A program made the translations under genes and the position numbers. Below the pieces are notes generated by a model. It searched no databases and was not told the DNA's origin. It saw only the letters and a program-made list of their open reading frames with translations. This document shows, one piece after another, positions 27,824 through 28,467 of a stretch of 34,304 nucleotides of DNA; positions within the stretch are counted from its first letter, which is position 1; every line of letters begins with the position of its first letter. The DNA comes from a virus (lineage: Duplodnaviria > Heunggongvirae > Uroviricota > Caudoviricetes), in IMG/VR virus record IMGVR_UViG_2703718827_000010, positions 1-34,304 of that record; one strand, given 5' to 3'.

Positions 27824-28306
27824 ATGCAGCTTACCCTCAATAATCTGAAAGAAGCTGGGGCTTTCACTGGCCGCCCAATTGAGAAGGAAATTACTTGGAA
27901 GCAGGGCGATGAAGAACTGACTGCTACTGTTTTTATCCGACCAGCGGGCTATCATGCTGCAACTCAGGGCATTCAGGCCAGCGCCGGTAAGATTGATGGC
28001 GTGGCTGGTTATATCGCGGCTGCAGTGTGCGATGAGGCTGGTAATCCCGTATTTACTGCGAAGGATATTACTGGTGAGGCCGACCCTGAACGCGGCGCCC
28101 TAGATGGTGCACTAACGGTGGCGCTACTGGTTGCCATTCAGGAGGTGAATGAGTTGGGAAAGACGACCTCACGGCTGAAGATGAAGTCTGGTGCGAGCTC
28201 GTCCTCAATGGCATCGGGGGAAGGACAATCGCAGAAGCTCAAGAGCGACTCAGCCTTAGAGAATTCCATCTCTGGCTCAGATACCGAAGCCGGTACGGTG
28301 GCCTAA
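27824..28306 (+). CDS. Tail assembly chaperone (lambda G-like)
   Basis: 160 aa between major tail and tape measure; contains slippery heptamer G_GGA_AAG at 28156-28162 in the zero frame. Confidence 0.7.
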   Translation: MQLTLNNLKEAGAFTGRPIEKEITWKQGDEELTATVFIRPAGYHAATQGIQASAGKIDGVAGYIAAAVCDEAGNPVFTAKDITGEADPERGALDGALTVALLVAIQEVNELGKTTSRLKMKSGASSSSMASGEGQSQKLKSDSALENSISGSDTEAGTVA

Positions 28307-28467
28307 ATCCCATGATGAGGACAGAGTGGGGGGCCGCGATGGTCGCCTCAGTGGTGGCGAATGTCAATAAAGGAAAGGATACTCCTTCGTTCCGCGTCAG
28401 TGATTTTTCCCCTCACATTAACGAGCCTGCCATTTCTTTGGATCAGGCCATGCAGGAATGGGCATAG
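27824..28467 (+). CDS. Predicted -1 frameshift fusion product of tail chaperone (GT-like); slip at 28156-28162, -1 frame read to TAG 28465-28467
   Basis: Heptamer G GGA AAG in-frame; -1 frame open from 28162 to 28467 (checked codon by codon). Confidence 0.6.

Follow-up and report, generated by a model that had tools for sequence, protein, structure and literature searches.

A probable lambda-type programmed -1 frameshift in the tail assembly chaperone gene of an HK97/HK022-like enterobacterial phage

Results

Organization of the tail region

The window, that is, the whole stretch of DNA analyzed here, comprises 34,304 nt of the IMG/VR virus record IMGVR_UViG_2703718827_000010. Outside the tail region it encodes a CI-like repressor, an O-like replication protein, an HNH endonuclease, a terminase, a portal, a protease and an HK97-type capsid, and it is a lambdoid temperate phage of the HK97/HK022-like kind. 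The features of the tail region relevant to this study are as follows.

26848-27213, tail terminator-like gene, a neighbour of the locus
27267-27770, + strand, major tail tube protein gene
27824-28306, + strand, gene G, tail assembly chaperone (160-aa zero-frame product; ORF listing, translation and PF16459)
28140-28146, + strand, Shine-Dalgarno-like AGGAGGT (GGAGG at 28141-28145), 10 nt 5' of the heptamer, putative stimulator
28156-28162, + strand, slippery heptamer G_GGA_AAG (Gly112-Lys113), predicted site of tandem -1 slippage
28162-28467, + strand, T segment in the -1 frame (101 sense codons and TAG), predicted to be translated only after slippage
29395-31812, + strand, tape measure protein gene

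The tail tube protein matched PF16460 (Phage_TTP_11, 1e-62) and phrog_158 (major tail protein), and the tape measure protein matched PF09718 (Tape_meas_lam_C, 3e-17) and phrog_2854 (9.6e-270). The gene order is tail tube, G, T, an inserted cassette and tape measure, which corresponds to the V-G-T-H arrangement. As in other members of the G/GT class, two overlapping ORFs lie between the tail tube and tape measure genes, despite the presence of the 927-nt cassette.

The slippery heptamer and the two reading frames

An earlier note on this DNA had proposed that a slippery heptamer, in the zero frame of the chaperone gene, is followed by an open -1 frame. Reading the sequence directly and checking the frame, we located GGGAAAG at 28156-28162 on the + strand. 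Within the ORF at 27824-28306, the zero-frame codons are GGA at 28157 (Gly112) and AAG at 28160 (Lys113), and the heptamer therefore stands in the register G_GGA_AAG, as had been claimed. The -1 frame is closed by TGA at 28150-28152, opens at 28153, one codon upstream of the heptamer, and then runs without interruption to TAG at 28465-28467, so this second claim also held on reading the sequence. Counted from the heptamer, it contains 103 sense codons.

Other parts of the earlier description required adjustment. The site does lie inside the chaperone gene, but it is not close to the 3' end: it falls at codon 112, and 48 of the gene's 160 codons still follow before the TAA at 28304-28306. The extension had been put at about 100 residues, and about 100 residues are indeed encoded in the -1 frame; however, the predicted fusion exceeds G by only 54 aa. 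Finally, the gap behind the G stop codon had been described as partly coding. This was correct for 28307-28467, which is coding in the -1 frame, whereas 28468-28651 is non-coding.

The predicted GT protein has 214 aa, written as join(27824..28162, 28162..28467), and its junction peptide would read ...EVNELGK-DDLTAEDEVWCELVLNGIGGR (...NELGK followed by DDLTAEDEVW...). G and GT would have residues 1-113 in common; in G these are followed by a zero-frame tail, residues 114-160, that is rich in Ser and poorly conserved. According to the ORF listing, the -1 frame has no ATG, GTG or TTG codon between 28153 and 28312, where the earliest possible start is found. This start lies 52 codons past the slip site and within the Pfam match to the T domain. 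Therefore, independent initiation could not reach the conserved stretch formed by the first 52 codons of the extension, nor the 20 residues with which the Pfam T match begins.

The heptamer as such is not rare. GGGAAAG occurs nine times in the window, against 4.8 ± 2.2 copies expected from shuffled sequences, and we rejected its frequency alone as evidence since this difference is not significant. We then surveyed both strands for XXXYYYZ sites that stand in frame in an ORF of 100 aa or more, which returned 29 sites. Their -1 extensions had a median of approximately nine codons and were typically shorter than 30; an extension of at least 100 codons was found only for GGGAAAG at 28156-28162 and for one spurious antisense ORF. 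The combination of the heptamer with a long open -1 frame is thus significant. The survey also returned T_TTA_AAG at 9503-9509 (+), in frame in the ORF at 9303-9641 and with a 63-codon -1 extension. No further in-frame slippery site combined a plausible gene with a -1 ORF of appreciable length, and T_TTA_AAG is probably due to chance.

Protein families encoded by the two frames

Searches of Pfam assigned the two frames to separate families. G matched PF16459 (Phage_TAC_13) over residues 6-109 with an E-value of 5.6e-33 and 113.7 bits, above the gathering threshold of 28.8, covering the complete profile (positions 1-98 of 98). It also matched phrog_1749, a family of tail assembly chaperones, at 1.2e-47. 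Translation of the -1 frame from 28153 matched PF06223 (Phage_tail_T, 'Minor tail protein T') at 9.3e-10, with 39.2 bits against a gathering threshold of 25.9, over profile positions 1-70 of 73, and phrog_337 at 2.6e-24. The PF06223 match begins at residue 34 of the extension, near position 28252 and upstream of the ATG at 28312. The Pfam family of lambda gpG, PF06894 (Phage_TAC_2), was not matched by the G of the window, which matched PF16459 only. In NCBIfam, no model was found for G, T or the fusion, and a PDB sequence search with GT returned no relative.

Conservation of the heptamer among relatives

A megablast search with 27200-29500 gave no match in the collections of phage genomes and complete E. 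coli genomes, and a search at the protein level was therefore needed. With the conceptual fusion as the query, tblastn found 51 phage records, 38 of them at a query coverage of at least 80%. In all 30 records among the matches listed, the alignment was in two pieces, the pattern that is expected from a change of frame. Identities were 63.5% for HK022, HK140, mEpX2 and mEp235, 65% for Klebsiella phages and approximately 60% for D3-like Pseudomonas phages. Scans of genomes and viral contigs added prophages of Franconibacter (92% over the G part), Stenotrophomonas and Microbulbifer, together with 80 IMG/VR contigs. The final conservation set contained 88 loci with 81 distinct DNAs, 57-100% identical to the window at the nucleotide level (median 68%), from phages and prophages of Escherichia, Klebsiella, Franconibacter, Pseudomonas, Stenotrophomonas and Microbulbifer.

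The earlier note had named a heptamer that is not conserved in relatives as an argument against the frameshift. On checking, we found the heptamer in 88 of 88 loci, as GGGAAAG in 86 and as GGGAAAA in two from Stenotrophomonas. It is placed at codon 112 in every locus except one (L007), where it is at codon 113. Across the 81 distinct DNAs all seven bases are invariant, save for the choice between G and A at the last, whereas adjacent third positions vary freely. The Gly codon at the slip site is GGA in 81 of 81 DNAs, although GGA accounts for 14% of the Gly codons in the rest of these genes, and the Lys codon is AAG in 79 of 81, compared with 40% elsewhere. The codon preceding the Gly ends in G in all 81, being CTG, TTG or, where the residue became Met, ATG. 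Since the heptamer is made of minority synonymous codons that have become fixed, selection must have acted on the nucleotides themselves, beyond the requirement for Leu-Gly-Lys.

One locus, a prophage of Microbulbifer echini (L004), carries T_TTG_GGA_AAG at 4330-4339, that is, two overlapping slippery heptamers, and its -1 frame opens exactly at the first of the two.

The exact G protein of the window was found on 86 public contigs from E. coli, Leclercia, Citrobacter and Enterobacter, under the name 'phage tail assembly chaperone family protein, TAC'. The public protein collection did not contain the 214-aa GT fusion. Several records give consecutive accessions to G and to the lipoprotein of the cassette, which suggests that T has no annotated CDS there.

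Selection on the -1 frame downstream of the slip site

The variability of each codon position was measured as column entropy, in bits, in the alignment of relatives. For the N-terminal domain of G, the entropies at zero-frame positions 1, 2 and 3 were 0.43, 0.24 and 1.35. In the overlap (28163-28306), positions 1, 2 and 3 of the -1 frame gave 0.43, 0.37 and 1.16, and beyond the G stop codon they gave 0.76, 0.49 and 1.43. Judged by these variability patterns, it is the -1 frame on which purifying selection acts once the slip site has been reached. The most variable position of the overlap is position 2 of the zero-frame codons, and the zero-frame tail is therefore free of amino-acid constraint. 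The products of the two frames behave differently among relatives: zero-frame tails vary in length between 3 and 48 residues, are rich in Ser and align poorly, whereas the -1 extensions are held tightly at 101-109 aa and contain invariant blocks, for example ELV..GIGG..IAEA.

Candidate stimulatory elements

No stimulatory stem-loop or pseudoknot was detected 3' of the heptamer, where the predicted folds were no more stable than those of dinucleotide shuffles (z of +0.51 for 60 nt and +0.95 for 100 nt). Rfam covariance models run on 27700-28700 returned only chance-level matches to unrelated families, far below the gathering scores. In E. coli, G_GGA_AAG has been reported to be a heptamer of high shift propensity, and Shine-Dalgarno-like stimulators of -1 shifts have been reported to be active 9-14 nt upstream (PMC5009743). 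The AGGAGGT located 10 nt 5' of the heptamer is predicted to form a duplex of -11.6 kcal/mol with the 3' end of 16S rRNA; the median of control windows from the same genes was -3.3 kcal/mol, and 2.7% of the control windows were at -8 kcal/mol or lower. GGAGG is present at the corresponding place in 39 of the 81 relatives; the remainder, HK022 among them, have the weaker GGAAG or GCAGG. Because only about half of the relatives have GGAGG, the Shine-Dalgarno-like element cannot be essential.

At most, AGGAGG modulates the efficiency of slippage, and it may raise the rate. Its spacing, predicted duplex energy and partial conservation make it possible, although we regard this as a tentative and rather doubtful proposal, that it acts as a functional dnaX-like 5' stimulator that is polymorphic within the chaperone family. 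If so, the ratio of G to GT would differ among close phages through a single synonymous or near-synonymous change, and G would owe its long Ser-rich zero-frame tail to the overlap, as a by-product that is tolerated.

The cassette downstream of T and other features of the window

Between the T stop codon and the start of the tape measure gene lies a low-GC cassette (28468-29394; 39-42% GC versus 50-57% in the flanks). Its ORF at 28652-29335 carries a lipoprotein-type signal (MKKILALALGALLLSGC...) and matched phrog_1353, a family of unknown function; no Pfam or NCBIfam match was obtained for this ORF. One hairpin precedes it at approximately 28530-28551, and a terminator-like hairpin follows it at 29354-29375. 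Taken as a whole, the cassette looks like a moron. Among the relatives, the spacing from T to the tape measure gene is 1-77 nt in most loci, and it is 364-1337 nt in approximately 30, with different inserts; the lipoprotein itself occurs in only eight loci. The T/tape-measure junction thus seems to be a recurrent insertion slot.

Two further observations concern other regions of the window. A phage-borne tRNA-Arg with the anticodon TCT (reading AGA) is encoded at 6573-6649 (-) in the early region. Directly after the major capsid gene, a small ORF at 25156-25386 (+) encodes a (Glu-Pro)6 repeat, ...AEPEPEPEPEPEPAATKRGKAK.

Discussion

We conclude, with a probability of approximately 0.93, that this temperate siphophage or prophage of Enterobacteriaceae, HK97/HK022-like in type, encodes a lambda-type tail assembly chaperone whose G part (27824-28306) and T part (28162-28467) are joined by a programmed -1 frameshift. 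The G/GT-type frameshift that the earlier note had claimed is supported, at the level of sequence comparison, by five independent lines, namely homology, synteny, the HK022 homologue, the invariance of the heptamer and selection on the -1 frame. Several observations count against a lambda-type G/GT reading: the 214-aa fusion is absent from the public protein collection, the slip site lies 48 codons from the G stop codon, 927 nt of cassette precede the tape measure gene, the G family is unlike that of lambda, and the Shine-Dalgarno-like element is kept in only about half of the relatives.

We infer the following course of events. Most ribosomes would remain in the zero frame and terminate at TAA 28304-28306, yielding the 160-aa chaperone G. 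A minority would move one base back on G_GGA_AAG in a tandem slip, in which the Gly-tRNA in the P site would re-pair from GGA to GGG and the Lys-tRNA in the A site from AAG to AAA. The slipped ribosomes would then read the -1 frame as far as TAG 28465-28467 and produce the 214-aa GT fusion, consisting of the same N-terminal chaperone domain as in G and the T domain. A fixed rate of slippage would determine the ratio of G to GT, apparently with no involvement of downstream RNA structure. By analogy with lambda, G in many copies and GT in a few would form a coat on the tape measure protein, recruitment of the tail tube protein would fall to the T domain, and the virion would contain neither form of the chaperone. 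Homology and synteny are the basis on which these roles in assembly are proposed for the phage of the window.

A reading that dispenses with frameshifting would take the T frame as a separate gene of 51 aa with its own initiation at ATG 28312. An ATG-started ORF of this length does exist at 28312-28467, and stand-alone T-like ORFs have been annotated in other phages, such as orf18 of D3 and an ORF of Klebsiella phage ST16-OXA48phi5.3. However, purifying selection on the -1 frame sets in at the slip site, 150 nt upstream of this ATG, and the invariant ELV..GIGG..IAEA motif lies within that selected stretch. The Pfam T-domain match likewise starts ahead of the ATG, at approximately 28252. Moreover, 28312 has no Shine-Dalgarno sequence in front of it, and a separate gene leaves the invariance of the heptamer unexplained. 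We therefore regard independent initiation as very unlikely.

The same GT protein could also arise from an mRNA made by slippage of RNA polymerase, a known bacterial alternative for two-frame products, but productive slippage in bacteria needs approximately nine A or T residues (PMC5009743), and the runs here are G3 and A3. In addition, the conserved X_XXY_YYZ register is a specific signature of tandem tRNA slippage, and the transcriptional route is accordingly given an even slimmer chance. Hardly any weight is left for a frameshift mutation or sequencing error in a single G-T gene (a pseudogene or artefact), or for a -1 frame that is open by coincidence. In one sequence taken by itself, an indel of a single base gives the same picture of two ORFs; yet the two-frame layout recurs in 88 loci with its junction at the heptamer, at codon 112 or, in one, 113, the exact G protein is carried by 86 contigs, and the -1 frame matches a curated protein family. 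Programmed ribosomal slippage at G_GGA_AAG is thus the reading that we adopt.

The main value of the programmed frameshift reading lies in the correct annotation of GT in a widespread enterobacterial prophage. Where the frameshift is not called, 28307-28467 resembles an intergenic gap or a stray ORF of 51 aa, and a protein that is predicted to be essential for tail assembly is missed.

Comparison with known systems

E. coli dnaX shares with the window a heptamer ending in A_AAG and a Shine-Dalgarno-like sequence approximately 10 nt upstream (PMC5009743). It differs in having a strong 3' stem-loop and in directing approximately 50% of ribosomes to a truncated product, whereas in the window no 3' structure is predicted and the shifted product would be the longer one. 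The genes are unrelated.

Pseudomonas phage D3 (orf17/orf18) and D3-like phages are closer, with approximately 60% identity to the fused product and GGGAAAG at codon 112. The -1 extension of D3 has 101 aa; unlike that of the window, its zero-frame tail has only six codons. The D3 and Klebsiella phage records annotate two separate ORFs, and the D3 records make no mention of a frameshift.

HK022 gp13/gp14, with relatives in HK140, mEpX2 and mEp235, provides the fused product that is 63.5% identical to GT of the window. Like the window, HK022 combines a PF16459 G protein (gp13, 117.9 bits) with a PF06223 ORF in the -1 frame, GGGAAAG at codon 112, a Ser-rich zero-frame tail (HK022 G has 161 aa) and the same order of the tail module. 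The HK022 record states that gp14 is 'presumed to be expressed as the downstream part of a translational frameshift product'; in the open-access literature, we found nothing specific on a frameshift in HK022 or HK97. The two loci differ in the distance from the end of T to the tape measure gene, which is 19 nt in HK022 and is taken up by the 927-nt inserted cassette in the window, and in the T extension, which has 109 aa in HK022 and 103 aa in the window. They differ also upstream of the heptamer, where HK022 has CAGGAAGT and the window CAGGAGGT, so that HK022 is without a full GGAGG.

The G/GT frameshift of lambda was reportedly described by Levin, Hendrix and Casjens in 1993, and is said to have been generalized to tailed phages by Xu, Hendrix and Duda in 2004, with later papers in 2013 and 2014 (all cited in PMC5009743). 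Lambda and the window have an identical heptamer, G_GGA_AAG, in the same register over Gly-Lys and with the same -1 direction (PMC3296357). In both, the two frames lie between the tail tube (V in lambda) and tape measure (H) genes, T belongs to PF06223 (54.1 bits and 2.2e-14 for lambda T), and there is no evident requirement for a structure closely 3' of the heptamer. The G proteins are different: lambda gpG matches only PF06894 and the G of the window only PF16459, and BLASTP of the window GT against lambda GT gave an E-value of 1.1, which is not significant. Therefore, it is only the T domain that links the window to lambda, at the profile level. On these profile matches, the G of the window belongs to the HK022/D3-type TAC_13 family, defined by the pairing of PF16459 with PF06223, and not to the sequence family of lambda gpG. 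Further differences are the number of codons from the slip site to the G stop codon (6 in lambda, 48 in the window), the length of T (144 aa in lambda, 101 aa after Gly-Lys in the window) and the upstream GGAGG, which lambda lacks.

In lambda, approximately 4% of ribosomes shift, giving a G:GT ratio of approximately 30:1; the tape measure protein is the binding partner of G, both free and as part of GT, the tube protein is that of the T part, and the virion contains neither form of the chaperone (PMC5009743, PMC3296357). Conceptually, the window adds nothing new to this scheme; it appears to offer a clean, well-conserved instance of the known lambda-type G/GT frameshift.
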